From NCBI GenBank assembly GCA_023061495.1, contig GCA_023061495.1_3643.1: a stretch of DNA of 64,000 nucleotides; one strand, written 5' to 3'. Source of the stretch: Escherichia coli (GTDB taxonomy: Bacteria > Pseudomonadota > Gammaproteobacteria > Enterobacterales > Enterobacteriaceae). Below the pieces are notes generated by a model. It saw only the letters and a program-made list of their open reading frames with translations, searched no databases and was not told where the DNA came from. A program made the position numbers and the translations under genes. Numbering within the stretch: position 1 is the stretch's first letter; every line of letters begins with the position of its first letter. Positions 2,479 through 51,727 of this stretch are shown here, in pieces.

Positions 2479-2507
2479 TTGCTTTTGATGTATCTTTGTG
2501 GTAAAAT
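2479..2507 (+). promoter_or_regulatory. sigma70-like promoter with extended -10 (TTGCTT, 17 bp, TGgTAAAAT)
   Basis: -35 TTGCTT 2479-2484, spacer 17, TG 2499-2500, -10 TAAAAT 2502-2507; member of a motif family recurring through the window. Confidence 0.5.
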
Positions 2508-2525
2508 ACATTAGTGAGGGATATA

Positions 2526-2984
2526 ATGCTAAAGGTTAAATGTCAAACAAGGTTCAACCTAAAGCGTTTAGATCGCTTCTACAAAGAACTTGTGAGACTT
2601 GAAAGTAAAACAATAACCTACGGCTTTTATGACGAACCTCACCCGTCAGGCTTAAATATGGCAACATTGGCAGCCATTCACAACTTCGGTTGGAACGGGC
2701 TGCCTGTTCGCAATTTCATGGAGACAGCCTTTGCATTTCACAGCACTCAACTACAGACCTTGACAGAAAAATTGTTGAGAGCTATGGCTAGAGGATCAAG
2801 TGCAGAGGCTATTCTTAAGCAGATGGGGGACACAGGGGCCAAAGCTATCCAGTTTGTTATTGAGGCTGGGCAGTTTAGTAATCCTACTGTTAGCGAGCAG
2901 TGGGCACAAGAGAAAGGCTTCAACGAGGCTATGCGGCATTACGATGTGCTGCTTGAATCTGCAACCTTTAAAATCGGACAGTAA
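2526..2984 (+). CDS. putative head-tail joining/neck protein (tentative HK97 gp10-like)
   Basis: ATG 2526 preceded by GAGGG (2516-2520); the track's GTG at 2514 would sit almost on the predicted transcription start; motif NGLPVRNF; position between capsid and tail genes. Confidence 0.4.
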   Translation: MLKVKCQTRFNLKRLDRFYKELVRLESKTITYGFYDEPHPSGLNMATLAAIHNFGWNGLPVRNFMETAFAFHSTQLQTLTEKLLRAMARGSSAEAILKQMGDTGAKAIQFVIEAGQFSNPTVSEQWAQEKGFNEAMRHYDVLLESATFKIGQ

Positions 2985-2999
2985 AAATAAGGGGGTTGA

Positions 3000-3425
3000 G
3001 TGGCAGCAGGTTATAAGCTGATAGGAAAGAACAGACTAATACCTCGTAAAACATTCAAAGGTCGCCACAGAGTGTATAACAAAACAGTTGGTGGCCCTTT
3101 TGCCAACGAGGGGTTAGAACTTGAGTATGAAGAGTTTGATGTCTTAGAGTGTGTTGTGCAACCGTTGACAGGAAGGGCAGCTAAAGATTACTCCTCTCAA
3201 ATAAATCCTGAAGGTGACAGACAGTACGAGGCTTTTACAGTTTACTCCTCAACCAAGTTGTGCAGTCCAGATGAAGGAACATATGCAATGGCTGATCAAA
3301 TTCAGCTGCCTGACATCCGTGGTGACTTGAAATGGTTTACCGTTTTAAAATGCGATGCATATGTCACATCTGGCGGTGGAAGATATAGATTTTTTGTGGT
3401 GGAAGAGCCTGAAGGAGAAAACTAA
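3000..3425 (+). CDS. putative neck/tail-completion protein
   Basis: GTG start 3000 preceded by AAGGGGG; 141 aa; within head-tail gene run. Confidence 0.45.
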   Translation: MAAGYKLIGKNRLIPRKTFKGRHRVYNKTVGGPFANEGLELEYEEFDVLECVVQPLTGRAAKDYSSQINPEGDRQYEAFTVYSSTKLCSPDEGTYAMADQIQLPDIRGDLKWFTVLKCDAYVTSGGGRYRFFVVEEPEGEN

Positions 3426-3976
3426 TGGAAGCTTTCGAAAAAGTTTTTTCTGATCTTGAAACAACCATTGCTAAGCTTGTCAAGGTTGCCACAGGAAGAA
3501 CTGTAGTTCTGGCAGAAAGCTCTACCATACCGAAGCCGGAAGGTGAGTTTGTACTTTTACAAACCTTGGCGATCAATCCCACCACTTGGGAAGATAATGA
3601 GTTTCAAGATGCGGAGGGTAATGCTTACGTAACACACAGTTACACTGTTACCTATCTGTTAACAGCTTATCGTGGCAGGGCACATGCTGCACTTGGCAGA
3701 GTATTGCAAGCAATAAACCTTCCAATGTTTTATGACAAGTATTTCCCTCTGGGATCGTGCTTTGCCTACTCTAACAATTCAACAATCTCACCTCAAAGAG
3801 TGCCGTTGAATAAGCAGGCGTATGAAAATAGGGCCACGGTAATGCTGACATTTAACGTAAGGTTTGTTGAGACAGACATTGGGGCTTTTGAGGATCTTCA
3901 GGGAATTAAGGCTGAAATAACCACACACTTCCCTCCACCCAATTCTGATAAATCGGTTACAGACAGTGGTCAGTAA
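3425..3976 (+). CDS. putative neck/tail terminator-type structural protein
   Basis: ATG overlaps upstream stop (TAATG), RBS GAAGGAGAAA; 183 aa; immediately upstream of the sheath candidate. Confidence 0.45.
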   Translation: MEAFEKVFSDLETTIAKLVKVATGRTVVLAESSTIPKPEGEFVLLQTLAINPTTWEDNEFQDAEGNAYVTHSYTVTYLLTAYRGRAHAALGRVLQAINLPMFYDKYFPLGSCFAYSNNSTISPQRVPLNKQAYENRATVMLTFNVRFVETDIGAFEDLQGIKAEITTHFPPPNSDKSVTDSGQ

Positions 3977-4048
3977 TCGTTATAATTGTGTAGTGTAATG
4001 ATTACACTGCGTGTTTGATATCCGTGCACAGATATTAAGAGGAAACAA

Positions 4049-5425
4049 ATGCCATATTTAGATAAAGTGGTAGATGTTACAGTTAACCTCGGAACCCAAC
4101 CTATTGACACTGTAGGTTTCGAAACTCCGCTGTTCATCGCTATCCACAACAACTTTACTGAGCGAGCTCGTGTATATGCTGAGCTGGATCAGATGGTGGA
4201 AGACGGTTTCGCACAAGGCTCTGCAGCGTATGAGTTTGCAGCAAAAGCTTTCGGCGGTGTATTCCCTCCACAGTATGTTATGATCGGCAGACAAGCCAAA
4301 GAAAAAACCACTGTAGATTTTAAAGGTATTGCTGCCGCAGCTGATACCGATGTCGTAATGACCATTGCAAAAGGTGGCTACAATACTTCTTTGATAGTCC
4401 CTATCTCTGGTGGAACAGGTGCAACTCAGATTGCAGAGGCAATGAAGACTAAAATCGAAGCCGATGATAACTTGGACGATATCACTGTAGAGGCTGCTGA
4501 AGGTGTTATCACCATCACTGGTAACTGCACTGTTGGTTATCATACTGGTAACTATACAATCAAAAATATCGCCAATGCTGAAAAACCTTCTACAGTAGTT
4601 GATAAGATCAATGCTGAGCGGGACAATTGGTACTTCCTGTGCCATGAAGACCACACCGACATTGAAGCATGTGCTAAGTGGGCTCAGGCTAACTACAAGC
4701 TGCATGTCTACTCTACTGCAGAAGATGTGACTGGCAAAGAAAGTAACATCGCCACCAAACTGATGGCTGCACAATATGATAGTGTCGGCATGTACGATCC
4801 TCGTGCGGATAAAGATTTTCCGGAGGGTGGTATCATAGGTGCTATGGCATCCAACGACCCGTCTTACGGTGACAGTTTGCACTTAAAACAGATGCCTGGT
4901 GTGATTGCACCATCTCTGACTTTGACTCAGCGTATGGCGATTTGGGAAAACCACGTTAACTTCTACAGAATGATTAACGGTGTTGGCGCTTTCTGGGAAG
5001 GTAAGTGTGCTTCAGGTCAGTATGCAGACGCTATTCGTTTTGCACACTGGATCAAGTTCAGATCTGAAGAATCCATGTTCGGGTACATGCATCGCCGCTC
5101 CAATATGGGTTTAAGCATGAAGATGTCTGATGATGATCTTCCGGTTATCAAGTCTGTTCTGATGAACAACCCGATCAATACTGGCATTAAGAATGGCGCG
5201 ATCCTGACAGGTTTTGACGAAGACAACAATGTGTTCTACGACCCGATCATCACAGTTCCTAAACGTGCAGAAATCCCAACCAATCAGTTGGCTGCTCGTG
5301 TTCTGGAAGGTGTGAAAGTAGAACTGGTGTATAACAACGCCTTGCACTTCGTTCGTATCCGGATCAACGTCCTCCTGGACAAAGTTGGTTCTAAATCCAC
5401 CAATGCTGTTGCAATGACTGAATAA
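4049..5425 (+). CDS. putative contractile tail sheath protein
   Basis: 458 aa, RBS AAGAGGAAA, high-expression codon usage; followed by a 157-aa tube candidate, frameshifted chaperones and tape measure (classic myovirus order). Confidence 0.5.
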   Translation: MPYLDKVVDVTVNLGTQPIDTVGFETPLFIAIHNNFTERARVYAELDQMVEDGFAQGSAAYEFAAKAFGGVFPPQYVMIGRQAKEKTTVDFKGIAAAADTDVVMTIAKGGYNTSLIVPISGGTGATQIAEAMKTKIEADDNLDDITVEAAEGVITITGNCTVGYHTGNYTIKNIANAEKPSTVVDKINAERDNWYFLCHEDHTDIEACAKWAQANYKLHVYSTAEDVTGKESNIATKLMAAQYDSVGMYDPRADKDFPEGGIIGAMASNDPSYGDSLHLKQMPGVIAPSLTLTQRMAIWENHVNFYRMINGVGAFWEGKCASGQYADAIRFAHWIKFRSEESMFGYMHRRSNMGLSMKMSDDDLPVIKSVLMNNPINTGIKNGAILTGFDEDNNVFYDPIITVPKRAEIPTNQLAARVLEGVKVELVYNNALHFVRIRINVLLDKVGSKSTNAVAMTE

Positions 5426-5435: not shown

Positions 5436-5909
5436 ATGGAAACTCAAATTTTAACTCCTTATGCGTATGACCCTAAAAAGGTCAAACTGTATCTGATGCA
5501 GCAGCGTGTCACTGGCTTCGCTGCTGACACCAAGATCGTTGTTTCAAGAAACGAAGACAACATCTACCCTCACGTTGGTGTGGATGGTGAAATGTCTGCG
5601 GCACTGTCTCGTAACCAATCTGGTGTTATGACTGTATCCTTACAGAACACTTCTGTATGGAACGCTTACCTTTCTGACTGGCAGAAACAGGCATCGATTA
5701 CTGGTCTGGTATTCTTCCCGGTTCTGCTGGAAGGTAGCCAGGGTCCAGGCATTGCTACAATCGGTTGGATCCAGAAACAGCCTGACCTGACTTACGGAAC
5801 CGAAGTAGGTCAACTGGACTGGGATATCGGTATTCTGGATGCATGGCTCAACCGTGACAACATCACTGGTGCTCTCACTGGCCTCGCAGGTCTTGCAGGT
5901 ATTATCTAA
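5436..5909 (+). CDS. putative tail tube protein
   Basis: 157 aa, RBS AAGGAAG, directly after the sheath candidate; terminator downstream. Confidence 0.5.
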   Translation: METQILTPYAYDPKKVKLYLMQQRVTGFAADTKIVVSRNEDNIYPHVGVDGEMSAALSRNQSGVMTVSLQNTSVWNAYLSDWQKQASITGLVFFPVLLEGSQGPGIATIGWIQKQPDLTYGTEVGQLDWDIGILDAWLNRDNITGALTGLAGLAGII

Positions 5910-5927
5910 GAGCACACTCTAGCATAG

Positions 5928-5953
5928 GCCTCACCTTTGGGTGGGGCTTTTTG
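5928..5953 (+). terminator. rho-independent terminator
   Basis: GCCTCACC-TTTG-GGTGGGGC hairpin followed by TTTTT. Confidence 0.6.
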
Positions 5954-5964
5954 CTTTTAGGGTT

Positions 5965-5998
5965 TTGACATATTTGTTTGTTTTTAGTATCCTATAAT
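5965..5998 (+). promoter_or_regulatory. possible promoter for the homing endonuclease gene (perfect hexamers, non-canonical spacing)
   Basis: TTGACA 5965-5970 and TATAAT 5993-5998, but spacer is 22 bp; an alternative TAGTAT at 5985-5990 gives 14 bp. Confidence 0.25.
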
Positions 5999-6014: not shown

Positions 6015-7640
6015 ATGGCTAAATTGAGTGCAGAAAGGTTTATCGAAAAAGCTCGTAGGGTTCACGGAGATAAGTACGACTATTCTCTTATAGAATACAA
6101 AACATGCAAAGATAAGATAGAAATAGTCTGCAATACCTGTGGTAACCACTTCAACCAGACACCGGATAACCATATAAATCTAAAAAGAGGATGCCCTGTT
6201 TGTGGAGCTGAGAGATCTGCAAAATCAAGAAAGGGTAAGAAATTCCCCCATGAGCGTGGTAACAGGTGCACTACAGAAGAGTGGATCAAGAAGGTACTAA
6301 AAAGATATCCTGAAAATGCTGAAAAGTATGATTATAGTCATGTAGTGTACAAGACCTCTGGAGATAAGGTTGAGATTCATTGCAAAATGTGCGGAAGAAT
6401 AATGCACCAGAAACCTAGCAAGCATTTGTCAGGGCAAGGATGCAAGACTTGCGCAGCAAGATCTGTTTCTGCGAAAAAAGTTCCTAGCTTCCAAGAAATA
6501 GTTGAGAGATGTGTAGAAGTACATGGTAGTGATTATGAGTATTTTGAAGACTCTTATGTGAACACCTCAACACCTATGATGATGCGCCACAAAGAGTGTG
6601 GGAATATCTTCATGCAGCGTCCTGAATTCCATTACGGGAAAGGACAAGGATGCCCTCGTTGCTGTCGAAATCAGTCTAATGGTGAGAAAGAGATCCTGAC
6701 GTTCATTAAAAGTGTGTATAGCGGCGATATTGAAGAGAACGTGCGTATTCTGGGCAACTTTAAGGATCCTTCCAAGAAAAAGATGGAGCTGGACATTTAT
6801 GTTCCGGAGCTTAAGCTTGCTGTGGAATATAATGGTGCCTACTGGCACTCTGTAGACAGTAAGGGGAAATGGTACCACATCCTGAAAAGGAAGGCCTGTG
6901 AAAAACAAGGTATTCGCATGTTGTCTATCTGGGATTGTGATTGGCAGGATGCTCGGAAAAGACCTATCATTGAGAGATATCTCAAGAATGCTTTAGGAGT
7001 CAAAGACGAGAAGACCGTCTATGCCAGAAAGTGCACAGTTAAAGATGTGGACAATAAAACTTACCGTGACTTTATGGAGAAAAACCACATTCAAGGGTAT
7101 GCCCCCGCCAAGGAAGTGAAGAAGGGTCTGTTTACATCTGACGGCGAGCTGGTAGCTTGTATGAGTTTTAAAATACTGAAAAACAGAGATCAAAAGGTAA
7201 CCCCTTTCGTTATGTGGGACATGGTAAGGTATGCAACAAGCTGTAACGTTCCTGGTGGGCGTAGTAAGCTGTTTAAGCATATCCGAGAAGAGTTTAAGAT
7301 GGATCATGTTCAATCCTTCCTTGACAGAGATTACTTCACAGGCGTGTCCTATAAGGAGGAGGATGGCTGGATTTTGGCAGAGGACGATCAGGTGTCTACG
7401 AGCTTCTGGAGCTACCGTGGTGGCAGAATGCCAAGGCAGGCGTGGTGGAAGTCAAACATCCCAGAGACACTGAAGCATCTCGGGTTGGACGAGTCCTTAT
7501 ACGATCCTGAGAAAACACAAGAGTGGAATGCCAAAAATGCAGGCTGCTATATCCTTGAAAACAGTGGCAACTCTCGCTTTGAATGGCACAGTGATGAAGG
7601 TAAAAATGATCCTGCATACTTGGATTGGTTGAAAGGTTAA
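6015..7640 (+). CDS. free-standing homing endonuclease candidate: three zinc-ribbon repeats plus PD-(D/E)xK (DUF559/Vsr-like) nuclease core
   Basis: 541 aa; three ~60-aa repeats each with HGDKYDYS...C-x2-C...GCP-x-C; central motif ELDIYVPELKLAVEYNGAYWHS; AT-rich with AGA/ATA codons unlike flanking genes; inserted between tail tube and chaperone genes. Confidence 0.55.
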   Translation: MAKLSAERFIEKARRVHGDKYDYSLIEYKTCKDKIEIVCNTCGNHFNQTPDNHINLKRGCPVCGAERSAKSRKGKKFPHERGNRCTTEEWIKKVLKRYPENAEKYDYSHVVYKTSGDKVEIHCKMCGRIMHQKPSKHLSGQGCKTCAARSVSAKKVPSFQEIVERCVEVHGSDYEYFEDSYVNTSTPMMMRHKECGNIFMQRPEFHYGKGQGCPRCCRNQSNGEKEILTFIKSVYSGDIEENVRILGNFKDPSKKKMELDIYVPELKLAVEYNGAYWHSVDSKGKWYHILKRKACEKQGIRMLSIWDCDWQDARKRPIIERYLKNALGVKDEKTVYARKCTVKDVDNKTYRDFMEKNHIQGYAPAKEVKKGLFTSDGELVACMSFKILKNRDQKVTPFVMWDMVRYATSCNVPGGRSKLFKHIREEFKMDHVQSFLDRDYFTGVSYKEEDGWILAEDDQVSTSFWSYRGGRMPRQAWWKSNIPETLKHLGLDESLYDPEKTQEWNAKNAGCYILENSGNSRFEWHSDEGKNDPAYLDWLKG

Positions 7641-7713: not shown

Positions 7714-8187
7714 ATGGCTATAAACTTTAGACCTACAACAGAGATTGATTTAGCAGGGCACAACTTTGTGATCACCCACTGGGGACCGATGAAAGCAATG
7801 AAAAACATGCCTAAAATCGGTAAGATTGTAGCTGTCCCGCTAGGTGCTATCGGTGGATCTATTCTCTCAGGCGGTCAGAATATGGCAGAGGTCCTTCCTA
7901 CAGCCCTGGCTTACCTGTTCCAAGAACTTGATGATAACTCTATCGAAGAGTTATTTAAAATCTTGTTTGAAGATATTACCGTGGATGGTGTGGATAAGCT
8001 TAACCCTGATGTTGTGTTTGCAGGGCATCTGCTGGAGATGATTAAGCTGGCAGGTAAGGTTCTGGAGGTTAACTACGGCTGTTTTTTCACACAAGACGGT
8101 TTAGGAAGCCTTCTGGAGATGTTACAGCAGATGGGTATGATTCAGCAGGTGAACAATCTGGATCAGACTCCGGAAGAGCAGGAATAA
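7714..8187 (+). CDS. tail assembly chaperone (lambda gpG analogue)
   Basis: 157 aa between tube and tape measure; contains slippery heptamer near its 3' end; downstream overlapping ORF in the -1 frame. Confidence 0.6.
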   Translation: MAINFRPTTEIDLAGHNFVITHWGPMKAMKNMPKIGKIVAVPLGAIGGSILSGGQNMAEVLPTALAYLFQELDDNSIEELFKILFEDITVDGVDKLNPDVVFAGHLLEMIKLAGKVLEVNYGCFFTQDGLGSLLEMLQQMGMIQQVNNLDQTPEEQE

Positions 8188-8447
8188 GCAAGGTTGTTGT
8201 GAGGGCCAGTGAGTGGGCAGCCAAGAACAGTTCACTCAACTGGTTCGACTTTCTTTGGTGCAGGGTGCTTAAGAATTTCAAAGGGGAAAATTTTGAATCG
8301 CTAAATCTTGCAGATATGGCGTATTTCCTGAAGCTCTGTGAGTATCTTGATATCGAAGAATTCCTAGATACCGTCCAAAACAGGGAAATGGAGCGGGAGC
8401 AGAAGGCTGCCGCAGCTGCTGCGAAAGCTAAGCGCAGGAGAGGATAA
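7714..8447 (+). CDS. tail assembly chaperone fusion product (gpGT analogue) via predicted -1 frameshift at 8082-8088
   Basis: Frame-1 ORF 7714-8187 and -1 frame ORF (open 8058-8447) overlap; X_XXY_YYZ heptamer 33 codons before the G-like stop. Confidence 0.45.
8082..8088 (+). other. predicted -1 programmed ribosomal frameshift slippery heptamer T_TTT_TTC
   Basis: Zero-frame codons TGT TTT TTC (8080-8088); the -1 frame is open from 8058 to 8447. Confidence 0.5.
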
Positions 8448-8451
8448 TCTA

Positions 8452-8488
8452 AGGGCCGGATTCCTTTTCTGGGATCTGGCCCTTTTTA
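8452..8488 (+). terminator. possible weak terminator or RNA hairpin
   Basis: Imperfect hairpin GGGCCGGA...TCTGGCCC followed by TTTTT; loop is large. Confidence 0.3.
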
Positions 8489-8501
8489 TTATGAGGAAAG
8501 C

Positions 8502-10841: not shown

Positions 10842-10854
10842 TAAACAGCACACA

Positions 10855-10880
10855 GGGGGCTCCGGCCCCCTTTATTTTAT
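10855..10880 (+). terminator. rho-independent terminator
   Basis: GGGGGC-TCCG-GCCCCC hairpin followed by TTTATTTTAT. Confidence 0.65.
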
Positions 10881-10885
10881 CGGTG

Positions 10886-10914
10886 TTGTAAAAACGGCTA
10901 TTTTATGATACAAT
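10886..10914 (+). promoter_or_regulatory. sigma70-like promoter with extended -10 (TTGTAA, 17 bp, TGaTACAAT)
   Basis: -35 TTGTAA 10886-10891, spacer 17, TG 10906-10907, -10 TACAAT 10909-10914. Confidence 0.5.
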
Positions 10915-10947: not shown

Positions 10948-11832
10948 ATGCCAAGTAATATAGTTGATGAAAAAGACCTGTACAAGCCTCAAGAGGTTAA
11001 ATCTCCAAAGGCTGAAAAGGCAGAGCAACAAACTGAAAGCGATGTAAAGTACACTATGTTTGTCAGCGGTCTTAACCATGGTGGTCGCAATACGGAGATG
11101 AAGGGCAAAAACTTTACTAACGATCTTGCAATCATCTTCGATCAGATTGAGAATTACTCTTTCAAACATTCTGTTGATAAGACTGATTTTGCGGTGGAAG
11201 ATAAATCTACCCTGTCAGACCACGCTGTAATTAAAGATGGTGTATTTTCTTTTACTGGTAGGGTAAATACATCACCACATATAATCTATGAGCAAAACTA
11301 CATTGACAGGAATACTGACTCTAAAAACCCTGCAGCATCTATGCGACCAGGCGCTGCACTGGAGGCTTTGACTGAGATCATTAATAAGCGCCAGTTGGTT
11401 TCTTTGGTTACCGAGGAGAGGCTCCTTGAGAACTACATCATAACCAGTCTTTCTGCCAACAAGTCTGTTGGTGAAGGTGCTGCGATGGTGTTTGATGTAG
11501 AACTTACAGAGTTCCGCACATTCTACTTGAACAAGGTTGTTAATGCAACTGTATACAGCAACCCTAAGAAAGTAGGCAAGACCCAGCAAAAAGGTGCTGT
11601 CAACGATTGTAAGAATGGCAGTAACGTAGGTAACAAGAGGGACACAGGGGCATTTGCAGACACTGCATCCACAAATGCTGCAGAAGAGTGGCAGCCATAC
11701 AAATCTATGATGTGGACAGATGAAAACGGTGTTACCCAATCTGCTGCGGATTGGTATTACCAGGAATATGGAAGACCTTCTACCATAGTCCCATCTGAGC
11801 AGGGAAACTACAACAAAGTTAACGGAAAATAA
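10948..11832 (+). CDS. hypothetical tail/baseplate-module protein
   Basis: ATG 10948 preceded by GGAGAGG; the track's upstream start at 10921 lacks an RBS and lies at the predicted transcription start; 294 aa. Confidence 0.45.
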   Translation: MPSNIVDEKDLYKPQEVKSPKAEKAEQQTESDVKYTMFVSGLNHGGRNTEMKGKNFTNDLAIIFDQIENYSFKHSVDKTDFAVEDKSTLSDHAVIKDGVFSFTGRVNTSPHIIYEQNYIDRNTDSKNPAASMRPGAALEALTEIINKRQLVSLVTEERLLENYIITSLSANKSVGEGAAMVFDVELTEFRTFYLNKVVNATVYSNPKKVGKTQQKGAVNDCKNGSNVGNKRDTGAFADTASTNAAEEWQPYKSMMWTDENGVTQSAADWYYQEYGRPSTIVPSEQGNYNKVNGK

Positions 11833-11844
11833 GGGGAGCGTGTA

Positions 11845-12225
11845 ATGGAGCTTAAAGATTGGTGCATAATCACCTTTGTGTGGGACATTGACGGCTTTCC
11901 TGATCAAACCATGCGTGTTGTTTTAGACAATGAGACGTATGAAATGCGTATGCAATGGAATGAGAGGGATGAGTCCTGGTGGCTATCTCTTGGTCCGGTA
12001 GGTGACAGCCCTTTAGTAACCAGAAAAGTAACAGCTTGTCAAGATATTCTAGACGGACTGCATTACAGAGACGATTTACCGAAAGGTAGATTGATGGTGC
12101 TGTCGTTTAAAGACGATCAATATTGGGGACGGGTTGGAAGATACAACCTTGGAGCAAGATCTGAGCTGCAACTTGTATACGGTACCCCAGTTGATCTTTA
12201 CAAGGAACAGCAAGGGTTAGAATAA
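11845..12225 (+). CDS. hypothetical baseplate-module protein
   Basis: RBS AAGGGGAG; 126 aa; tightly packed with flanking tail genes. Confidence 0.45.
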   Translation: MELKDWCIITFVWDIDGFPDQTMRVVLDNETYEMRMQWNERDESWWLSLGPVGDSPLVTRKVTACQDILDGLHYRDDLPKGRLMVLSFKDDQYWGRVGRYNLGARSELQLVYGTPVDLYKEQQGLE

Positions 12226-13223: not shown

Positions 13224-13900
13224 TGGCAATAAATAGGAAAGATGCTGCCGTAAGATCCTTTATAGAAAAAATAATGAGGGACTACCACACCAGTATCAGG
13301 GCTAGAGTTGTCAGCGTAGATTACAGTATCCCTTCCGCAGCCGTGCAGCCAATAGCTGAAACCACGTTTGATGACGGAGATGTTGAGAGATACCCTCTTA
13401 TCTATGATGTGCCAATCCAGGTGATGTCTGCAAACAGTGGGAAGGCAAGGTTAACACTCCCTATTAAGGCTGGAGATGTTGTAGGATTGCAGTTTTCAGA
13501 GAGAAATGAAAACAACAACGATGATCAACAAACTCACGGCCTGTTTCCGGGGTGGGCAATAACCTCTGTTCATTCAGACTCTAACGCTCTGCAGATCGAT
13601 CCTGATAATGTAGAGTTATGGAATGATAAGGTTTATTTTAAGCTGACACCTTCTGGTGATTTTGAGCTTCAAACACCTGGTGGGACATTACGGTGCGACA
13701 GTAGCGGGGAGTTTTCTTTCACCAACGGAGCTGCCAATTTACGAGCTGCTGTGGATGGAAATATTAGAATGAATGGTGCCACAATAGACCCATCTGGTAG
13801 AATCATAACTGCTGCTGGTGTGGATTTGGACTCATTCTATGCAGAATATAAAGGTCATACCCACTCTTGCCCTGATGGTGAGACAAGTGGACCGCACTAA
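13223..13900 (+). CDS. putative baseplate central spike protein (gpV/gp5-like) with His-rich C-terminal tip
   Basis: 225 aa; RBS GAGGAGG; C-terminal YKGHTHSCPDGETSGPH resembles metal-binding HxH spike apex motifs. Confidence 0.45.
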   Translation: MAINRKDAAVRSFIEKIMRDYHTSIRARVVSVDYSIPSAAVQPIAETTFDDGDVERYPLIYDVPIQVMSANSGKARLTLPIKAGDVVGLQFSERNENNNDDQQTHGLFPGWAITSVHSDSNALQIDPDNVELWNDKVYFKLTPSGDFELQTPGGTLRCDSSGEFSFTNGAANLRAAVDGNIRMNGATIDPSGRIITAAGVDLDSFYAEYKGHTHSCPDGETSGPH

Positions 13901-13912
13901 TAGAGGGCTTGC

Positions 13913-14728: not shown

Positions 14729-14737
14729 GGGGAAATC

Positions 14738-15406: not shown

Positions 15407-15407
15407 G

Positions 15408-23497: not shown

Positions 23498-23498
23498 G

Positions 23499-37680: not shown

Positions 37681-37694
37681 ATCTGGAGAACACA

Positions 37695-40600: not shown

Positions 40601-43430
40601 GATAATCCCTGGTCCTGAAACTCTGGGCAATGCCGTTGACCCTTATATCGTCATGACCGTGCTGAGATCAAACATGGATGGGACATCCATGTCTATGCAA
40701 GTTCCAGTAACAAACGGGTACAAACGTGTTGTGATGATCATTAAGTGCGACTTAATAGGTAAGCAAGTTCTTGCAGAAAACGGAACCTCAACACATTTAT
40801 TCGAGACTGCTCTGCATTATCAGTTTGCTGATTCACCTTTTGCAGGGGATAAGAGAATATCTGATACAGACAATGCTCGATGCAAGAAATTTATGCTTGG
40901 TGGTGGATGGTGGTGGTATGAATTTGATTTAACAGACAAATTCACCGACACGTCTAAAGTGGTGACAGGGCTTCGTCTAGATCTTGGCGAAAACATGCAC
41001 AAAAGTGTTTGTGATGGCACCTACGGTGACCCAACAATCTACTTAAAGTATGTTTCTTTTGAGCACCCAGAGGATGTCGTTTATGGTCCAAAACTGAGAC
41101 TGTTTGGCAATTGGATTGCTAAAGACAGGGCAGGTATGGGTAAAAAGGTGAGAGGGTTCTTAGTTGATGCAGGAACAGAAGACATGTTGGTTAATGCAGT
41201 GTGGCCTGAATTACCGGGAACTCAGTGGGACAATTCTGCTAAGTCTATAAACTGGTTCAATATCCACAGAGCTATGTGGGCAACTAACTGCTATCTGTGG
41301 AAAGAGTTGAATGACGGCGCTTTCGGGTTTACTGGTGGCAGAAGAATGGCAATCATTTGCTGGACAACGCTGCAGAGATGTTATGACCATGACTACGAGA
41401 TTGGAGGCAGGGCATGGAAAAATATAAGGGATAGAATCATAACTAACTTTGCAGATCCTAACGGTGGCGGGGCGTATGGTTTCGACTGCAGCAGGCTTAT
41501 CCATTTGAACGGATCTTCGGCCTATAAGAAAGAAGGCTACTCTGGGGCCATGATTGAATGGGGCTTGGTAAAAGATTCTCGTGTGTTGATGGGTCAGCAA
41601 CTTGCTGCTGCAATAGGACCGAACGCAGTACAATCTGTTAAACCAGCATGGTTCGATATCCCATTATGGTCCTCTGGAACACCAGGAACTGCTGCAATCA
41701 ACCCTACCACTGGGGATCTGGAAATCTCCTGGGAGGACCTGAAGCAGGTCGGTGGCTGGGATAAGGCAGGGTACCAGGTGCAATGGTGGAGATCTGACGG
41801 ATCATTGGCGGCTGATGAGTTTGTTAAGGACAATTTCTACACCATGTCCTCTGCAAAAGCACAGCAATTGTTTGGTCAGGCCACTCCGTCAACGATCACC
41901 ATGTCCATGTGCTGTAAAGACACCAGGACTGGAGCTCTGGGGCCAAGGGTTGCTAAAGTTTTCTCAGGTATTAAATGGAATCTCCCTGTTCAAAGTGTTT
42001 CATGGAAGCAAATAGGTGATAACAAGCTGCTGGTTACCCCAGCTTGTCAGTTCAGCGCAACTCTTAACGTTGATCCTGCTGTTGCGGCAAACTCAGCTAA
42101 AGCTTCTGACTTCTCTGTGTCTAACACTGCTATGGCAGATGTGAGGAAGATTGACACGCTGAACGCCAGAATTACCTGTAAAAACACTTATGGCACATTC
42201 CAGATCATCAACAACTTCACAGATGCTGATTCTAAGGTAGTGAGGACAGCAAGCCAAACTCTGAGTTTAGGAACTCTGGCCTACGCGGCCCTGATCACTG
42301 AACAGTCGGCAACACTCCAAGGAGGCGGTGTAGGCAAGTCCATTGCAACACCTGTGTGGAAGCCAAATGAGTGGGTTGTGTTTGATTTAACTGTGGACTT
42401 CTCCAGCGATAATAACTGGACATGGGTAAGGAATTNNNNNNNNNNNNNNNNNNNNNNNNNNNNNNNNNNNNNNNNNNNNNNNNNNNNNNNNNNNNNNNNN
42501 NNNNNNNNNNNNNNNNNNNNNNNNNNNNNNNNNTTCTTGTCACAACTGATGGGTGGCCCAAACTCAGTTAGTGATAGCCAAGACTCCACTGACCCGAGTG
42601 TGTTTCAGGTGGGTAAAACTCACCCAGAAACTGGGGCACCGTTGCCTGACAGGAAGTATGCTTTGGTTTGCATCTCTTACGGAAAAGCAGATGTAACCTT
42701 CTCAGGGACACACACATATAACGGCACTTACAACTTCTCTAAAAAGTACAGCCTCAAGGCAGGTAACATTGTAGACGAGGTTGGTGCGTTGTATAATCCA
42801 GGAAACGGGATAGGGATTGTAGGTGGTAAACTGCAGATGCAGGAACCTTCTATTACCCCTTCCAATGTGCCAGGAATCAGAAAGACTTGGGAAAGTAGTA
42901 ATACCAACATTGCAACAGTGGATGCTACCACAGGGCTGGTAACATTTAAAGCTACTGGGAATGTCACTATAAAGTTTGTAGTTACAGATGATGCAGGGCG
43001 CAAAACGTCTTCAACATCTTTTACTGTCAAACAGATGGCACCACAGTGGAGAATGTGGATAGGTACAGCAACAAACGGGGCATATCCTAATCCGGCAGGG
43101 ACTTCTGGTATGAAGACTTTCTCTACAAGCAAGCCGATGGAGTACGGCAGCGGTCCTAAGGTAGGGCAGATGGTGTACTTTGGTGCGTATATTCCTGAAA
43201 TTATAGGGCTTCCGAGAAGTCAGCTTCAGTTGCTGTTTGGGGCTGGTGTTGACGATCTTGCCACTTTCGGGTATAGAGACAACATCGATGCTGCAAGGAG
43301 TTCAGGATGGGTAGGGTTCAGAATGGAGTCTGGAAAGGAAGGCAGGATTCTAGGGACAGCCTCTATAGGTGTTATGTTCCCTGGTGACCAGCAGTATCGT
43401 CTAGAAGCCTACGCAACCTTTTCTCGTTAA
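37695..43430 (+). CDS. giant virion-associated protein (1911 aa) with bacterial Ig-like (Big_2-type) domain; part masked by N
   Basis: Single ORF preserved in frame across a 98-nt N-run; segment PSNVPGIRKTWESSNTNIATVDATTGLVTFKATGNVTIKFVVTDDAGRKTSSTSFTVK resembles Big_2 domains; ends at a bidirectional terminator. Confidence 0.55.
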   Translation: MLPIPLLKLGRHFLDKRGGIKELAVLSYPIDNSDGTSTTVPYVNSLAILFDDGQLNITGYNRFGECRTGDLDTINYPNEAAWNVDHVWRADRAFVIRTFDNQFFYIGCTAGLIGSDAAGGNDVCVREWTPLPEQIVKGLHLDTHPERLIEVMGGINNTVWVIAEAEGTGILNLYGSGNNTYGSLHVDKNQHATPVKIGETSENPETGPWKNPSINCEVHDNSVIFGGPRGFWIAGYDFLRNNSRNDLVWPPVQITRNDLRGIPADEEWKGFMCGPNGAIIATQRMHKPNDQQLVNVFYGQDVWGDDTWRSLNITYTHEVIMARGYGTSGIFFNNGTKQYRGFSRNLCNDIGAQSANNSPRANFIHYQALATAKYVEQRLPVSWTESVYFQGIHREGFLGTFTVVNGKLWWSGIPRGSFAGSNNLFGGRLNSQGFTEVPENWYKNVPVDSWGVDDIFDVNGVSSVSNIYIGDTVKMKLKPQPEGATFIIDKIELVNAAGTVVTDANYQFSANWNHGGANEVVVTQYNRNVNRRGLYSVKITYHDKHGTGRTHTTRTLNWNTIVPAYPSDGKWHTVGRNKQFHVNDTVYFGLNAAQPAVEGDTSYMVRLHRMDAGSVTYDVTQEIYNQRRNTYDNLVQTQALWEFNPNGRGGKMLQVNEQNGTSLTVHEHPNPWPDPGKPNSGARTLKIVSHDVGYFGIRWEATVRYADGTTNNIGITLGGTSEDNSLKIAYTPRGISIDNMDVVRNGYGDVNIKVTLGEHLGGERIIMYAFDHDPRTNGTYADQAWSYLISAPEPNTKEFYYGMKRNVCKKTGTHDWIAICVKDERTAWNEPVNRWFVGIPTRSDKYVEEYIVCMGGTNLNMCWNEDANNKYSDYDYMRDYSCNQWFNQPGYADRQARVNPAIFTDTQVFLTKQANEVQTFKNKYDPNKWFYNCYGAFFWGPGELPNGGSCFEAATYASDRFMGQVKKYKIIPGPETLGNAVDPYIVMTVLRSNMDGTSMSMQVPVTNGYKRVVMIIKCDLIGKQVLAENGTSTHLFETALHYQFADSPFAGDKRISDTDNARCKKFMLGGGWWWYEFDLTDKFTDTSKVVTGLRLDLGENMHKSVCDGTYGDPTIYLKYVSFEHPEDVVYGPKLRLFGNWIAKDRAGMGKKVRGFLVDAGTEDMLVNAVWPELPGTQWDNSAKSINWFNIHRAMWATNCYLWKELNDGAFGFTGGRRMAIICWTTLQRCYDHDYEIGGRAWKNIRDRIITNFADPNGGGAYGFDCSRLIHLNGSSAYKKEGYSGAMIEWGLVKDSRVLMGQQLAAAIGPNAVQSVKPAWFDIPLWSSGTPGTAAINPTTGDLEISWEDLKQVGGWDKAGYQVQWWRSDGSLAADEFVKDNFYTMSSAKAQQLFGQATPSTITMSMCCKDTRTGALGPRVAKVFSGIKWNLPVQSVSWKQIGDNKLLVTPACQFSATLNVDPAVAANSAKASDFSVSNTAMADVRKIDTLNARITCKNTYGTFQIINNFTDADSKVVRTASQTLSLGTLAYAALITEQSATLQGGGVGKSIATPVWKPNEWVVFDLTVDFSSDNNWTWVRNXXXXXXXXXXXXXXXXXXXXXXXXXXXXXXXXXFLSQLMGGPNSVSDSQDSTDPSVFQVGKTHPETGAPLPDRKYALVCISYGKADVTFSGTHTYNGTYNFSKKYSLKAGNIVDEVGALYNPGNGIGIVGGKLQMQEPSITPSNVPGIRKTWESSNTNIATVDATTGLVTFKATGNVTIKFVVTDDAGRKTSSTSFTVKQMAPQWRMWIGTATNGAYPNPAGTSGMKTFSTSKPMEYGSGPKVGQMVYFGAYIPEIIGLPRSQLQLLFGAGVDDLATFGYRDNIDAARSSGWVGFRMESGKEGRILGTASIGVMFPGDQQYRLEAYATFSR
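42436..42533. other. run of 98 N (masked or unresolved sequence) inside a CDS
   Basis: Literal N characters; flanking ORF remains in frame. Confidence 0.95.
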
Positions 43431-43449
43431 CAAGGGGGTAAATAAAAAA

Positions 43450-43476
43450 GGGGCCAAACGGCCCCTTTCTTTTTAT
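43450..43476. terminator. bidirectional rho-independent terminator between convergent transcription units
   Basis: GGGGCC-AAAC-GGCCCC hairpin flanked by an A-run upstream and a T-run downstream; separates the + strand structural genes from the - strand early genes. Confidence 0.7.
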
Positions 43477-43478
43477 AG

Positions 43479-47172: not shown

Positions 47173-47436
47173 TCAGAAACCCTCTAAAAAGCTCTTGTAG
47201 AAAATAATCTCAGTATCCACACCAGTCACGATCTTGTCGTTCCTGATTTCATCTGTAAGATAGGTGTCAAAACGCAGCACCTGTGTGGTATTGTCACACA
47301 TCCACTCGGCTGTTACCATGGCAAAAATCTTAGCATCTTCATTATCTGGTGTAAATGTTACCACCTCACCGCATTTAAACTTTTCGATAGGTTGCGTGTT
47401 AGCTTTTGGTTCTGCAATGGTGATTTTCGTGGTCAT
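47173..47436 (-). CDS. small early protein, tandem paralogue family (C)
   Basis: 87 aa; RBS AGGAGGAG; motif KCGEVVTF aligns with PCGTVVSC and APGTVVMF of the neighbours. Confidence 0.5.
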   Translation of the reverse strand: MTTKITIAEPKANTQPIEKFKCGEVVTFTPDNEDAKIFAMVTAEWMCDNTTQVLRFDTYLTDEIRNDKIVTGVDTEIIFYKSFLEGF

Positions 47437-47699
47437 TATTCTCCTCCTTCTTTTGAATAGCTTGTCTCTCCAAGGATGGTAATTTTGGTGTCAAGCTCTG
47501 TAACTTTCATGTTTGGTGGCAGATCGTACAACTCATTATTTTCTAAATCGAACCCCCATACACAATGTTCCCCTGTTTTGACAATCATAACTATGTTTTG
47601 AATGCCGTCTCCGTCACAACTTACCACGGTCCCACATGGAAAACTGTCTGCACGCTTTTTGTTCTTCACTTTAGAATTGAATACAATGCTAGTAGCCAT
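47436..47699 (-). CDS. small early protein, tandem paralogue family (B)
   Basis: 87 aa; RBS GGAGGA; 1-nt start/stop overlap with neighbours; clear similarity to paralogue A. Confidence 0.5.
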   Translation of the reverse strand: MATSIVFNSKVKNKKRADSFPCGTVVSCDGDGIQNIVMIVKTGEHCVWGFDLENNELYDLPPNMKVTELDTKITILGETSYSKEGGE

Positions 47700-47962
47700 T
47701 ATTGTTCCTCCACCATAACTTCGCCAAGAATTTCTATGCAGGCATCCATTTCTGTAACAACCAAGGTGTGAGGTAGTTCTGCAAACACCTTTCTGAACAG
47801 GTCAAATACCCCAACATATATGTTTGCAGGATGTGATCTCACAACAAGTGCTGTATTCACATCTCCAAGTTCATCAACAAACATCACCACAGTACCTGGA
47901 GCTACTGAAGACAGATACTTCTTAGTTTTACGGTTGGATGCAAATTTTAACTCTGTTGCCAT
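47699..47962 (-). CDS. small early protein, tandem paralogue family (A)
   Basis: 87 aa; RBS GGAGGAG; MATELKFASNRKTKKY...APGTVVMF...VGVFDL...LGE. Confidence 0.5.
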   Translation of the reverse strand: MATELKFASNRKTKKYLSSVAPGTVVMFVDELGDVNTALVVRSHPANIYVGVFDLFRKVFAELPHTLVVTEMDACIEILGEVMVEEQ

Positions 47963-49471: not shown

Positions 49472-50449
49472 TTATTTAACGTGCTTGAAAATACCAGCCA
49501 ACTCGGTCATTGTCATGCGGGTGGTCTTCATAAGGTCTGTCATAGCTTTTTCCATGATTGGAGATACCACCATGAAGTTACCTTTGGTGAAACCTTTGTT
49601 CCAGTCGGTAACTAATAGTGGTTTAAGTCCGGCCCCGAGACGCTCACCAGTTAAAGCACAACATTTTCGAATGTATGTGCTCTTAAATTGGCTGAACGAC
49701 AGATCAACTTTCATGCCTACATCGTAGAACGTTTGACAATAGAAGGTGTAAGCTTTGGCAATCTCAACATCATCAGGTAGTGCAGGAACCTCTTCTGTAA
49801 GCCCCTCTTCGACCTCCTGAGTCTCTTTTTCCTCTTCATGTACCTGTTGCGTCATTTCTTCAATCTCTTCTGCGATAGGTTCGTTTACAATGTCAGAAAT
49901 GTGCTTCTTGGGTGCACGATAAGTAACTTTAGACATAGGTAGCATATCTTCCTCCTCTTCTTCGTCAAAGAGTGCTAGTTTATCCTCTTCCGTTCCATAT
50001 TGCAAGATGAAATCTTCAAAAGTATAATCACCTTTCAATTTCTCCATACGCTCTTCGCTCAGGTGGAGCATCATCTGCTGGACAATTTTTCGATCAGTTT
50101 TGTCTTTAATCAAGACTGCGGTCTTTTTATCTACCAGACAGTCCTTCAGGGAGTTGCACCTTAACCCAACCACACAACAGTTATCAATTGCGTAAGGACC
50201 TTCATCATCTATCCGCTCTAAGGATGGGTAGAAAGGATTCCCCAACCCGTTTTCATCTGTGTGCATGTCAAAAGGTATAAGGGTATAGTCGCACACCCCC
50301 TCTCCTAAAAGTTTTTTACCAAATAGGAGGTATTCTTCCCATGACAGGTTGAACTCTATATCTCGTTTCCGTGCATTATTTTGTTTGCGTCTGTATTTTT
50401 TTAGCAGGCGCTCTAATTCTTCTGGTGTATAATATTTTTCAAGATTCAT
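49472..50449 (-). CDS. first early gene of the minus-strand unit; protein with degenerate HNH-like motif and acidic linker
   Basis: ATG at 50449 lies about 25 nt downstream of the predicted minus-strand transcription start; the track's TTG at 50515 would precede the promoter; motif SLERIDDEGPYAIDNCCVVGLRCNSLK. Confidence 0.45.
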   Translation of the reverse strand: MNLEKYYTPEELERLLKKYRRKQNNARKRDIEFNLSWEEYLLFGKKLLGEGVCDYTLIPFDMHTDENGLGNPFYPSLERIDDEGPYAIDNCCVVGLRCNSLKDCLVDKKTAVLIKDKTDRKIVQQMMLHLSEERMEKLKGDYTFEDFILQYGTEEDKLALFDEEEEEDMLPMSKVTYRAPKKHISDIVNEPIAEEIEEMTQQVHEEEKETQEVEEGLTEEVPALPDDVEIAKAYTFYCQTFYDVGMKVDLSFSQFKSTYIRKCCALTGERLGAGLKPLLVTDWNKGFTKGNFMVVSPIMEKAMTDLMKTTRMTMTELAGIFKHVK

Positions 50450-50480: not shown

Positions 50481-50509
50481 ATCTTATCAAGTGCCTCAAC
50501 AGATGTCAA
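50481..50509 (-). promoter_or_regulatory. early promoter, minus strand (TTGACA, 17 bp, TAAGAT)
   Basis: Minus-strand -35 TTGACA (50509-50504), spacer 17, -10 TAAGAT (50486-50481); back to back with the plus-strand promoter. Confidence 0.55.
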
Positions 50510-50522
50510 CCTCAAAAACGTG

Positions 50523-50551
50523 TTGACTTTACTCTAAATCCACGATATAGT
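50523..50551 (+). promoter_or_regulatory. early promoter, plus strand (TTGACT, 17 bp, TATAGT)
   Basis: -35 TTGACT 50523-50528, spacer 17, -10 TATAGT 50546-50551; divergent from the minus-strand early promoter. Confidence 0.55.
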
Positions 50552-50591
50552 GCACCCATTCGAAAGAAAACGAACACAGGATCACTTAATC

Positions 50592-51491
50592 ATGTCAAAT
50601 CTTAACAGCTTTAGCACTCGGTGGAAACAAGATATCACAACCAATCTCTCAGCAGGAGATATCCTTTCTGCAATTTACGAGGCCTTGGATGATAAAGCTA
50701 CTTCAAAATCGGTCTGTACCAACCCGCTAATTCCTATAGTAATGAAGGTGATTGAACGTAGGTTGGTATCCGGATCCGATAAGTGGACATATCTTGATAA
50801 TGGGGGACACACTTACTCCAACGGATATGTTGATATAAAAGTAGAATACGCAGTATCATACCGACGGAGCGGTTCTGTAACTTTCAACTTCTCTGGAGGT
50901 TTCCGATCTCTGGCAACTTCACCTTTTGTTTCCTCAGAGCAAAAGTTTGAACTTCCGTTCCTTTGGATGATGGCTAACGCGACAGGCAAAACCCCTGTAA
51001 GCATTCGCGTAAAATACAACTACAACGGATCTAGTAAGATCTATGCCGAGAGTGTATCAGCAAGTTTTTATTTTGTGATGGGGGATGGAATCCTCAAACA
51101 TATAAAGATGTGCGATATGCATGATGTTATAAATGAAGTGACTGATAAGAATGTCCTAGTGAAAGACCTCAATAATTTTTATACACCTGGAGACTATTAC
51201 GTCAACCGCCCACTGTGCATCTTTAATGCCGCACACCCTTTAGGTGAGTATTTGATCGCCAATAGCGATATTGCCAATAATCGCTTCGAGGTAGCAAGAG
51301 TACAGAATGAGGTGTTGACATCTTGCAAGAGCGGTGATAAGTTTACCGAAGAAGAGATGGGTGTTTTAGAGATGATGGGATATAAGTGTAGCCTTTGGGT
51401 AGATGAGGTGTTTAATGACGGCATCTATGGACAGGATATTTACCCACTAAAGAAGTATACTGATTCCAGTTTAATTTACGCGGAGATTTGA
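50592..51491 (+). CDS. hypothetical early protein
   Basis: ATG 50592 downstream of the predicted transcription start; the track's start at 50550 would overlap the -10; 299 aa. Confidence 0.5.
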   Translation: MSNLNSFSTRWKQDITTNLSAGDILSAIYEALDDKATSKSVCTNPLIPIVMKVIERRLVSGSDKWTYLDNGGHTYSNGYVDIKVEYAVSYRRSGSVTFNFSGGFRSLATSPFVSSEQKFELPFLWMMANATGKTPVSIRVKYNYNGSSKIYAESVSASFYFVMGDGILKHIKMCDMHDVINEVTDKNVLVKDLNNFYTPGDYYVNRPLCIFNAAHPLGEYLIANSDIANNRFEVARVQNEVLTSCKSGDKFTEEEMGVLEMMGYKCSLWVDEVFNDGIYGQDIYPLKKYTDSSLIYAEI

Positions 51492-51698
51492 CTATGATGA
51501 AGTCATGTGGTAGTGTATATTATGTTGGTGAGAATGTTCAGGCAGATAGTGTGTGGAAATCACCACCGATGATGCCTTCTTGAGCGGGTTATGTTTCCCC
51601 AATCCTGGGGACATTCTCCCTCACCCTGGAGATTTTGTTGTCAACAAGACAGACGGTTATACCGTGTGCCTGATGGTTGAAAAAATCTTTTTAGACAC

Positions 51699-51727
51699 TA
51701 GACACAATCACCGTCTTGTGCTAAAAT
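51699..51727 (+). promoter_or_regulatory. sigma70-like promoter with extended -10 (TAGACA, 17 bp, TGcTAAAAT)
   Basis: -35 TAGACA 51699-51704, TG 51719-51720, -10 TAAAAT 51722-51727. Confidence 0.45.

Follow-up and report, generated by a model that had tools for sequence, protein, structure and literature searches.

The closest described counterparts of the elements considered here come from phage rV5, for which "putative late promoters" with the motif TggTAaAAtA, preceding late genes 27-66, have been tabulated (Kropinski et al., 2013, Virol J 10:76; PMC3606486, Table S4C). The rV5 authors stressed the likeness of these promoters to the late promoters of T4 (TATAAATA, where gp55 acts together with gp33 and the gp45 clamp). 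T4, too, is a large virulent myovirus, and its virion genes are preceded by an A/T-rich motif in the -10 region. A second point of reference is the host sigma70 extended -10 class (TGnTATAAT), with its TG at -15/-14, A-11 and T-7, a weak or dispensable -35, and, where a -35 exists, a 17-bp spacer. Extended -10 promoters are also known from Thermus phage P23-45, whose middle and late genes have promoters of this kind without a discernible -35, and in which gp39 and gp76 have been described (Tagami et al., 2014; PMC3950348). Within the same phage subfamily as rV5, an early promoter, AAAA-N4-TGTTGAC-N17-TATAAT, has been defined for the Certreviruses, for which a late motif was not reported (Buttimer et al., 2020; PMC7344957).

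The 64-kb window (the whole stretch of DNA analyzed) belongs to a Vequintavirus, an rV5-like myovirus with 93-98% identity to known E. coli phages. A preliminary description of it had proposed at least seven intergenic promoter-like sites, six of which, at 2479, 7642, 10886, 22848, 28769 and 35100, correspond in that order to rV5 P056, P051, P048, P040, P036 and P030. Compared with rV5 Table S4C, the six show 0-4 mismatches over 37 nt, three being identical, and they share with the rV5 elements the motif, the position upstream of late genes, and the interpretation; in phage Gotham, all six homologous sites carry PhagePromoter features. The six-site class is real and conserved, but it was already published for rV5 in 2013. 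What is new here is its conservation at orthologous junctions across genera, a sharp peak of TTG at a 17-bp spacing, and the absence of both TGnTATAAT and the T4-type TATAAATA. When the literature was searched for the motif itself, only unrelated papers came up.

Motif statistics in the window

All seven sequences, the seventh at 51699, are present at the coordinates given; in each, a 6-mer is followed by exactly 17 bp, the last three reading TGn, and then by a -10 hexamer. The class formed by the first six can be written TTG-N17(ending TGn)-TA[A/C]AAT. When the window was scanned for the composite TTG-N17(TGN)-TAMAAT, exactly these six sites were recovered (6 matches vs 0.10 expected), every one intergenic and on the late coding strand. 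The shorter pattern TGNTAAAAT matched 11 times, solely on the + strand (3.6 +/- 1.9 in shuffled sequence); the five matches outside the class (10730, 30482, 39641, 59162 and 59308) lie in coding DNA without TTG, at chance expectation. A generic sigma70 scan stayed near the shuffle background (per 20 kb, 44 vs 31.8, 36 vs 33.0 and 47 vs 34.6), so that the signal resides in the specific composite motif and not in general promoter-likeness. In the whole rV5 genome, with spacers of 16-18 bp allowed, 8 of 13 matches fall within the late module, on its late strand, and an additional match, at 123662, precedes the EndoVII gene block.

The site at 51699 (51699-51727, + strand; TAGACA-N17(TGC)-TAAAAT-T) does not belong to this class. 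It lies in the early/middle gp10-to-gp1 unit, its -35 is not of the TTG type, and alignment to rV5 ORF9 places it in coding sequence (...RLVLKFQ...) close to the 3' end of the ORF9 homologue, the window's copy of which carries a 10-bp frameshifting deletion. The intergenic location claimed for all seven sites does not hold for this one, which is coding in relatives, and two sites depart from the claimed TTGACA-like/TAAAAT composition, 51699 through its TAGACA and 10886 through its TGATACAAT. Site 51699 also falls outside the published set: it has no entry in rV5 Table S4 and no promoter annotation at the corresponding point in Gotham, and it scores only 10/12 in the near-background generic scan. 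It is probably a chance sigma70-like match.

That match, together with the near-background level of generic sigma70-like sequences, is what could be said for viewing the whole set as chance sequences in AT-rich intergenic DNA, or else as RNA-level signals for processing or translation. Against this reading stand the 6 matches vs 0.10 expected, the strict strand and position specificity, and the cross-genus conservation of the motif while its flanks turn over. No Rfam family matched in the window, and a search for a shared operator, dyad or hairpin at the promoters turned up only unrelated short inverted repeats. Moreover, four of the sites lie just downstream of terminators, so that the motif would be untranscribed in most transcripts. 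We regard both versions of this reading as very improbable indeed.

Predicted late promoters and terminators of the tail, baseplate and fiber blocks

All six sites lie on the coding strand, with -10 ends 18-43 nt upstream of the first gene in a tail, baseplate or fiber block, so that the Shine-Dalgarno sequence stays within the transcript. P056 (2479-2508, + strand; TTGCTT-N17(TGG)-TAAAAT-A) is identical to rV5 P056 and has its -10 end 18 nt upstream of the neck1/tail-completion gene (2526-2984; PHROG annotation), and its operon extends through the tail sheath (4049-5425) and tube (5436-5909) genes. A reading of its TTGCTT as a MotA box was dropped because the other sites are without it. P051 (7642-7671, + strand; TTGACA-N17(TGG)-TAAAAT-A), with 11/12 matches plus TG, differs by 1 mismatch from rV5 P051, has a promoter annotation at its site in both the rV5 and Gotham records, and precedes the tail assembly chaperone genes (7714-8447) by 43 nt. 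P048 (10886-10915, + strand; TTGTAA-N17(TGA)-TACAAT-A) precedes the baseplate-hub block (10948-22809) by 33 nt. Its published register in rV5 (TGTTGTAAAAAC) is probably wrong, since orthologues reading TTGTTT-N14-TGATAAAAT after the tape-measure gene in TH18, SSE121, a Klebsiella phage and pEa56 support TTGTAA-N17-TGATACAAT over the MEME register of Table S4C.

The three remaining promoters stand before fiber and wedge genes. P040 (22848-22877, + strand; TTGCGT-N17(TGG)-TAAAAT-A), which has 1 mismatch to rV5 P040 and a PhagePromoter feature in Gotham, lies 30 nt before the distal-tail/tail-fiber block (22907-28726). P036 (28769-28798, + strand; TTGACT-N17(TGG)-TAAAAT-A), identical to rV5 P036, is separated by 33 nt from the baseplate wedge gene (28831-30321) and heads an operon reaching 35069. 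P030 (35100-35129, + strand; TTGCAT-N17(TGT)-TAAAAT-A) matches rV5 P030 and lies 31 nt before the fiber block at 35160-37646.

The suggestion that several of the sites sit immediately after intrinsic terminators is borne out at 10886, 22848, 28769 and 35100, was true of 7642 only ancestrally, and fails at 2479. On the + strand, the terminator following the tape-measure gene (rV5 t049; 10854-10881, hairpin 10854-10871) lies 14 nt before the P048 -35, and that at 22816-22845 (rV5 t041; hairpin 22816-22835) lies 12 nt before the P040 -35. The fiber gene at 24475-28726 is followed by a terminator at 28732-28763 (+ strand; hairpin 28732-28753; ARNold-annotated in Gotham), 15 nt before the P036 -35. 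At P030, a hairpin with a weak T-run (35079-35110, + strand) overlaps the -35 through the end of the hairpin proper (35079-35100). The terminator that follows the tail tube gene (rV5 t052; 5926-5959, + strand) ancestrally lay about 50 nt upstream of P051, and an inserted HNH gene now parts the terminator, at 5926-5949, from that promoter.

Two further terminators on the + strand have no such partner. A strong one (rV5 t050; 8451-8494) separates the chaperone genes from the tape-measure gene and is not followed by a promoter, and another (rV5 t028; 37654-37685), before the 1911-aa gene at 37695-43430, is not followed by a promoter of the class. The first is likely an attenuator, and both may act as attenuators inside operons. 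A bidirectional terminator (rV5 t026/t027; 43447-43478) closes the late module. Because most of the sites follow intrinsic terminators, on the coding strand and at the heads of gene blocks, segmented transcription of the late genes, as originally suggested, is the natural reading. On this reading, these compact terminator-promoter cassettes would stop transcription of one tail, baseplate or fiber block at the terminator and restart it a few bases on, so that the 41-kb late module would be expressed as about six separately initiated operons.

Conservation at orthologous junctions

The motif is kept at orthologous junctions (at the head protease, at neck1, after the tape measure, and at the baseplate wedge) in TH18, SSE121, a Klebsiella phage, pEa56 and A5-4, lineages of or near the Vequintavirinae. 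For example, orthologues of P056 reading TTGATT/TTGCTT...TGGTAAAATA precede neck1 in all five. For the wedge protein, relatives were drawn from GenBank phages and a metagenome scan, since viral_contigs gave just 3 near-identical loci; in every lineage with a wedge protein of at least 51% identity, metagenomic relatives included, the junction holds a terminator followed by TG[GA]TAAAATA, the motif persisting while the rest of the spacer and the flanks have turned over. P030 is similarly kept with a diverged spacer in the roughly 80% lineage (L021/L039). The class is absent from the orthologous junctions of Felix O1 and the Phapecoctavirus Ro121c4YLVW. Among relatives at 29-31% identity, some have isolated TGCTAAAATA sites.

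When k-mers were counted without prior selection in the late-module intergenic DNA of six other genomes, TAAAATA ranked first among 7-mers (9.6-fold enriched), with terminator k-mers next. In late-module intergenic DNA, seven genomes together have 29 copies of TGnTAAAAT on the late strand and none on the opposite strand, and TGn precedes 29 of 37 late-strand TAAAAT boxes there, compared with 24 of 108 in coding DNA.

Promoter architecture and its possible readers

The sigma70-type extended -10 architecture put forward in the preliminary description is supported. TG stands at -15/-14, with TGn directly before the -10 hexamer at 6/6 window sites, and 21 of 27 cross-genus sites have TTG across a spacer of exactly 17 bp, the optimum for sigma70. 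These sites were chosen without TTG as a criterion and, not being phylogenetically independent, represent roughly a dozen junctions or origins. At spacers of 12-16 and 18-19 bp, TTG occurs in none of the 27; the G is missing in the other six, and some lineages have TTTATA, TTTTAA or TTTTTT in place of the -35. Within the window, only one of six sites has the full TTGACA, and the -10 hexamers (TAAAAT at five sites, TACAAT at one) all keep A-11 and T-7 and each agree with TATAAT at 5/6 positions. The late class differs from the familiar sigma70 extended -10 class in that the -10 is fixed as TAAAAT and then A, the A at -6 being conserved in 21/27 sites, and in that the consensus TGnTATAAT is never found in late intergenic DNA (0 vs the 29 TGnTAAAAT of the seven genomes).

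The late sites also contrast with the early promoters of rV5. TTGACA is present in 20/24 early vs 1/8 late sites (Fisher p = 0.0007), T at the third -10 position in 16/24 vs 0/8 (Fisher p = 0.002), and TG in 8/24 vs 8/8 (Fisher p = 0.002). In the rV5 lists, earlier genes thus use -10/-35 promoters and later genes extended -10 promoters. In the window, the early class is represented by the divergent promoters at 50481-50551, P011 (- strand; TTGACA-N17-TAAGAT) and P010 (+ strand; TTGACT-N17-TATAGT). The Certrevirus early promoter corresponds to this early class, with its UP-like A tract and TTGACA, and not the late one.

The distinctness of the late class, the fixed TAAAAT(A) (rarely TACAAT) with TATAAT wholly absent, and the conserved A at -6 could all be taken to favor a phage-specific late promoter, in which TGnTAAAATA would be read by host core polymerase with a phage sigma-like or sigma-modifying factor in the style of T4 gp55/gp33, an analogy that the rV5 authors had proposed. 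However, the 17-bp TTG, which points to a sigma70 region 4 contact, is absent from T4 late promoters, and TG at -15/-14 is a classical sigma70 region 3.0 contact. There are also 0 occurrences of TATAAATA on either strand of the 64-kb window; homologues of gp33, gp45 and gp55 are reported to be absent from rV5 (PMC3606486); and neither a sigma-like domain (Pfam and PHROGs) nor any transcription-related domain (Pfam) was found among the ten early window proteins scanned. We consider a phage-specific late promoter unlikely, and a T4-type one was rejected, as TATAAATA is absent from the window; the invariant TG and the TTG peak at 17 bp argue instead for a sigma70 extended -10 architecture.

The two-class structure (A-rich upstream tract and TTGACA early, with TG in a third; weak -35 and obligatory TG late) also recalls P23-45 and T4 AsiA, in which one class of genes has -10/-35 promoters and later genes have extended -10 promoters, all read by host polymerase. 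By this precedent, an early protein would displace sigma region 4 or modify alpha-CTD, shutting off UP/TTGACA-dependent early and host promoters and sparing the extended -10 late promoters. The early class shared with the Certreviruses and the outright loss of the -35 in some lineages are consistent with such a switch, as is an Srd-like "decoy of sigma70" gene at the head of an early operon. This gene, the gp11 homologue (49472-50407, - strand), is the first after P011, is Srd-like in the rV5 annotation, and matches the PHROGs "Srd anti-sigma factor" (1.8e-10) and "decoy of host sigma70" (1.2e-11), with no Pfam match; it is a weak candidate for a phage factor acting on host sigma, and the only candidate for an AsiA/gp39-type role. 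T4 Srd itself is not known to have a proven part in transcription. Unlike the P23-45 promoters, most of these late promoters keep a -35 TTG, whose retention at 17 bp in 21/27 sites would be pointless were sigma region 4 displaced when they fire, and neither a sigma4- or beta-flap-binding factor nor an AsiA-like or gp39-like protein is known here. Such a switch seems to us improbable.

We favor, with a probability of roughly 0.7, the view that the six sites are Vequintavirus late-operon promoters, most likely read by host sigma70 holoenzyme as extended -10 promoters. Their sequence, position, statistics, geometry and cross-genus conservation are direct observations, from which we infer firing in vivo, sigma70 as the reader, and lateness. 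Sigma region 2/3 would contact TGnTAAAAT(A), and region 4 the partial -35 (TTG) exactly 17 bp upstream. A literature search on Vequintavirus and rV5-like phages found no transcription-start, RNA-seq, time-course or in vitro transcription data. Promoters with TTG, TG and a 5/6 -10 would be expected to fire on naked DNA as soon as infection begins, an expectation that does not account for late timing; perhaps that timing is set by gene dosage after replication, by the loss of competition from strong UP/TTGACA early promoters, or by a phage factor.

A fixed TAAAAT without TATAAT is not predicted by a plain sigma70 reading. Because this -10 is fixed at about a dozen independent junctions in at least seven lineages and is never TGnTATAAT, a factor partnering sigma70 becomes a candidate. 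Perhaps a Vequintavirinae factor acts together with sigma70, with region 4 on TTG, and either alters -10 recognition or is needed for open-complex formation; we give this only a small chance of being correct.

The relevance of these findings lies mainly in annotation: the published names of the rV5 late promoters apply to the six elements, and terminator-bounded operons can now be drawn across the late module, with the register of one published site, P048, probably corrected. With the cross-genus comparison, they are among the best-supported predicted promoters in a poorly studied, therapeutically used phage subfamily. If a sigma70-partner factor does operate at these promoters, it would represent a late-transcription mechanism unlike T4 gp55/gp33, AsiA/MotA, or P23-45 gp39.

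Six putative late promoters and their published counterparts

A total of 124 GenBank phage records matched a 14-kb piece of the window at 90-99% identity, nearly all of them Escherichia phages of the rV5-like myovirus genus Vequintavirus (B9-1, ECP26/32 and Gotham among them). The first 43.4 kb of the + strand hold the late module, with the end of the major capsid gene, the genes for neck, sheath, tube, chaperones, tape measure and baseplate, and several fibre genes. It is followed by small early genes in a block on the - strand (43.5-50.5 kb) and, after these, by a + strand gp10-to-gp1/rIIA-rIIB unit. Among the records matching positions 22000-36000, eighteen bear the name 'Campylobacter phage' (C2, A140-A142 and others); most give Campylobacter jejuni as host, the four listed are 93-95% identical, and the group is probably made up of mislabelled or contaminant phages. 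Four runs of N, 94-98 each, in late genes (14611-14704, 25021-25116, 35336-35431 and 42436-42533) break up ORF calls, for example in the fibre gene at 24475-28726. Within the early region, three tandem 87-aa genes of unknown function (47173-47962, - strand; two of PHROG 10698, one of PHROG 12861) look like a local duplication.

The preliminary description had listed seven promoter-like elements, at 2479, 7642, 10886, 22848, 28769, 35100 and 51699, and all seven sequences are present exactly there, each with a hexamer separated by 17 bp, the last three of them TGn, from a -10 hexamer. The proposed TAAAAT holds for six, 10886 reading TACAAT, while a TTG-type -35 and an intergenic location hold for the first six only. 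The composite TTG-N17(TGN)-TAMAAT matched the window six times against 0.10 expected, at exactly these first six sites, every one intergenic. The shorter TGNTAAAAT matched 11 times, on the + strand only, against 3.6 +/- 1.9 expected; its remaining five matches lie in coding DNA, lack TTG and are in line with chance expectation. A generic sigma70 scan of the window stayed near background, so the signal resides in the specific composite motif. The promoter class is real and conserved, with six of the seven sites as members. The seventh, 51699, has TAGACA at -35 and lies inside the ORF9 homologue (51494-51766), towards its 3' end, where it encodes …RLVLKFQECK…, and neither rV5 nor Gotham has a promoter annotated at this position. 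Relative to rV5, this homologue carries a 10-bp deletion at about 51560, and the resulting frameshift leaves only a 67-codon GTG-started ORF (51553-51756).

This promoter class is already described in the literature. For rV5, 33 sigma70-like promoters were reported, of which 11 have an extended -10, and MEME found TggTAaAAtA eight times upstream of late genes 27-66 (sequences in Table S4C), a motif that the authors likened to the T4 late promoter TATAAATA (Kropinski et al., 2013; PMC3606486). Six Table S4C sequences map to the window with 0-4 mismatches, namely P056 (2479), P051 (7642), P048 (10886), P040 (22848), P036 (28769) and P030 (35100), and at these six junctions PhagePromoter features are also annotated in Gotham's GenBank entry, mostly downstream of ARNold terminators; our finding is therefore a rediscovery. 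The MEME register of rV5 P048 (TGTTGTAAAAAC; window 10873-10909) is probably off by about 20 nt, and we favour TTGTAA-N17-TGATACAAT because orthologues in four other genera support it.

The suggested position immediately after intrinsic terminators was borne out at four sites (gaps of 0-15 nt); 2479 has no terminator upstream, and 7642 (P051) followed one directly only ancestrally, before an HNH homing endonuclease gene separated them. This 541-aa gene (6015-7640, + strand; PHROG 559, E = 1e-110) lies between terminator t052 (5926-5949) and P051, its stop codon ending 1 nt upstream of the -35, and has its own promoter-like sequence, TTGACA-N17-TATCCT (5965-5993). No gene occupies this junction in Gotham, nor apparently in rV5.

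Conservation across lineages

We compared the late modules of TH18, Seunavirus SSE121, a Klebsiella phage, Henunavirus pEa56 and A5-4, from five other lineages of or near Vequintavirinae; the set was extended by an Aeromonas Plateaulakevirus, Felix O1, a Phapecoctavirus and the complete genome of rV5. In an unbiased count over six non-window genomes, TAAAATA was the top k-mer of late-module intergenic DNA (16 of 39 genome-wide copies, 9.6-fold enriched), followed by terminator k-mers such as GCTTCGGC. Late intergenic DNA from seven genomes contained 29 copies of TGnTAAAAT, all on the late strand, and none of TGnTATAAT. The motif is found at orthologous junctions 5' of the head protease, 5' of neck1, 3' of the tape measure and 5' of the baseplate wedge; at such junctions the class is absent from Felix O1 and the Phapecoctavirus. 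In a wedge-protein alignment scan of metagenomes (48 loci), the terminator and TG[GA]TAAAATA were kept 5' of the wedge gene in every lineage of at least 51% identity, with the -35, spacer and 5' leader replaced, and the motif was absent from this junction at 43% identity or below. An equivalent of P030 is kept with a new spacer in a lineage of about 80% identity. The -10 variant may extend beyond Vequintavirinae to more distant myovirus relatives.

Isolated TTG...TGCTAAAATA sites were seen in three metagenome loci with wedge proteins 29-31% identical (L036, 2895; L043, 660; L045, 763). In rV5 as a whole, 13 sites match the composite when the spacer may be 16-18 bp, and eight of these lie on the late strand within the late module. 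Another of the 13, a class-type TTGTAA-N17-TGCTAAAATA outside the window (rV5 123662-123690, locus L012), falls within the gap 5' of ORF215-213, a block including endonuclease VII, in a region that is otherwise early. Also outside it, 'P064' (rV5 57995-58023, locus L011; TTGCCA-N17-TGGTACAATA) lies upstream of terminator t064ABC, not downstream, so that the portal transcript would carry the hairpin in its 5' leader.

Two promoter classes and the probable reader of the late one

In rV5 three features set the late class apart from the early one: TTGACA at -35 occurs in 20/24 early promoters and 1/8 late sites (Fisher p = 0.0007), TG at -15/-14 in 8/24 and 8/8 (p = 0.002), and T at the third -10 base in 16/24 and 0/8 (p = 0.002). 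An A-rich upstream tract is frequent in early promoters, a design shared with the Certrevirus early promoter.

Among 27 curated cross-genus sites, which are not independent samples and for which TG and TA.AAT were selection criteria, the columns outside the selection showed TT at -35/-34 in 27/27, G at -33 in 21/27 and A at -6 in 21/27; TTG stood at exactly 17 bp in 21/27 and at 12-16 or 18-19 bp in none. TTG peaks sharply at the spacing that is optimal for sigma70, and this peak and the TG at -15/-14 together give the sites the build of a sigma70 extended -10 promoter whose -35 is partial; the host-sigma70 reading offered initially is the best supported. We give a probability of roughly 0.7 to the host sigma70 holoenzyme as the reader, since T4 late promoters have neither feature and the late sites here have both, and since TATAAATA has no occurrence in the window. 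The rV5 authors reported no gp33, gp45 or gp55 homologues (PMC3606486). Our literature search found no transcription-start or expression data for the subfamily.

Plain sigma70 recognition does not predict the fixed A at the third -10 base or the missing, stronger TGnTATAAT; either the strength of the late promoters is deliberately held below its maximum, or recognition has some further contributor. A switch of the AsiA/gp39 type between the promoter classes would fit their two-class structure, but accords poorly with the TTG retained at -35. The sole candidate factor seen in the part of the window's proteome that was scanned is the homologue of gp11 (49472-50407), called Srd-like in rV5 (PMC3606486), which shows no Pfam domain and has PHROG matches annotated as 'Srd anti-sigma factor' and 'decoy of host sigma70'.

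Predicted late transcription units

The first start codon lies 18-43 nt downstream of the end of the -10 box. P056 would drive the neck, sheath and tube genes as far as t052, and P051 the chaperone genes and, past the putative attenuator t050, the tape-measure gene, ending at t049. P048 would serve nine baseplate and fibre genes up to t041; P040, the distal tail gene and a large fibre gene, up to a terminator; and P036, the wedge gene and five more, up to a hairpin overlapping P030. P030 itself would transcribe three genes and, past terminator t028, the 1911-aa gene, ending at the bidirectional t026/t027. The 72-nt gap 5' of the tail sheath gene holds a 12-pair GC-poor hairpin (3987-4013, + strand) and no class promoter. 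Two strong intrinsic terminators inside late operons, before the tape-measure gene (8451-8484, + strand) and before the 1911-aa gene (37654-37675, + strand), have no promoter after them and look like attenuators that set expression ratios.
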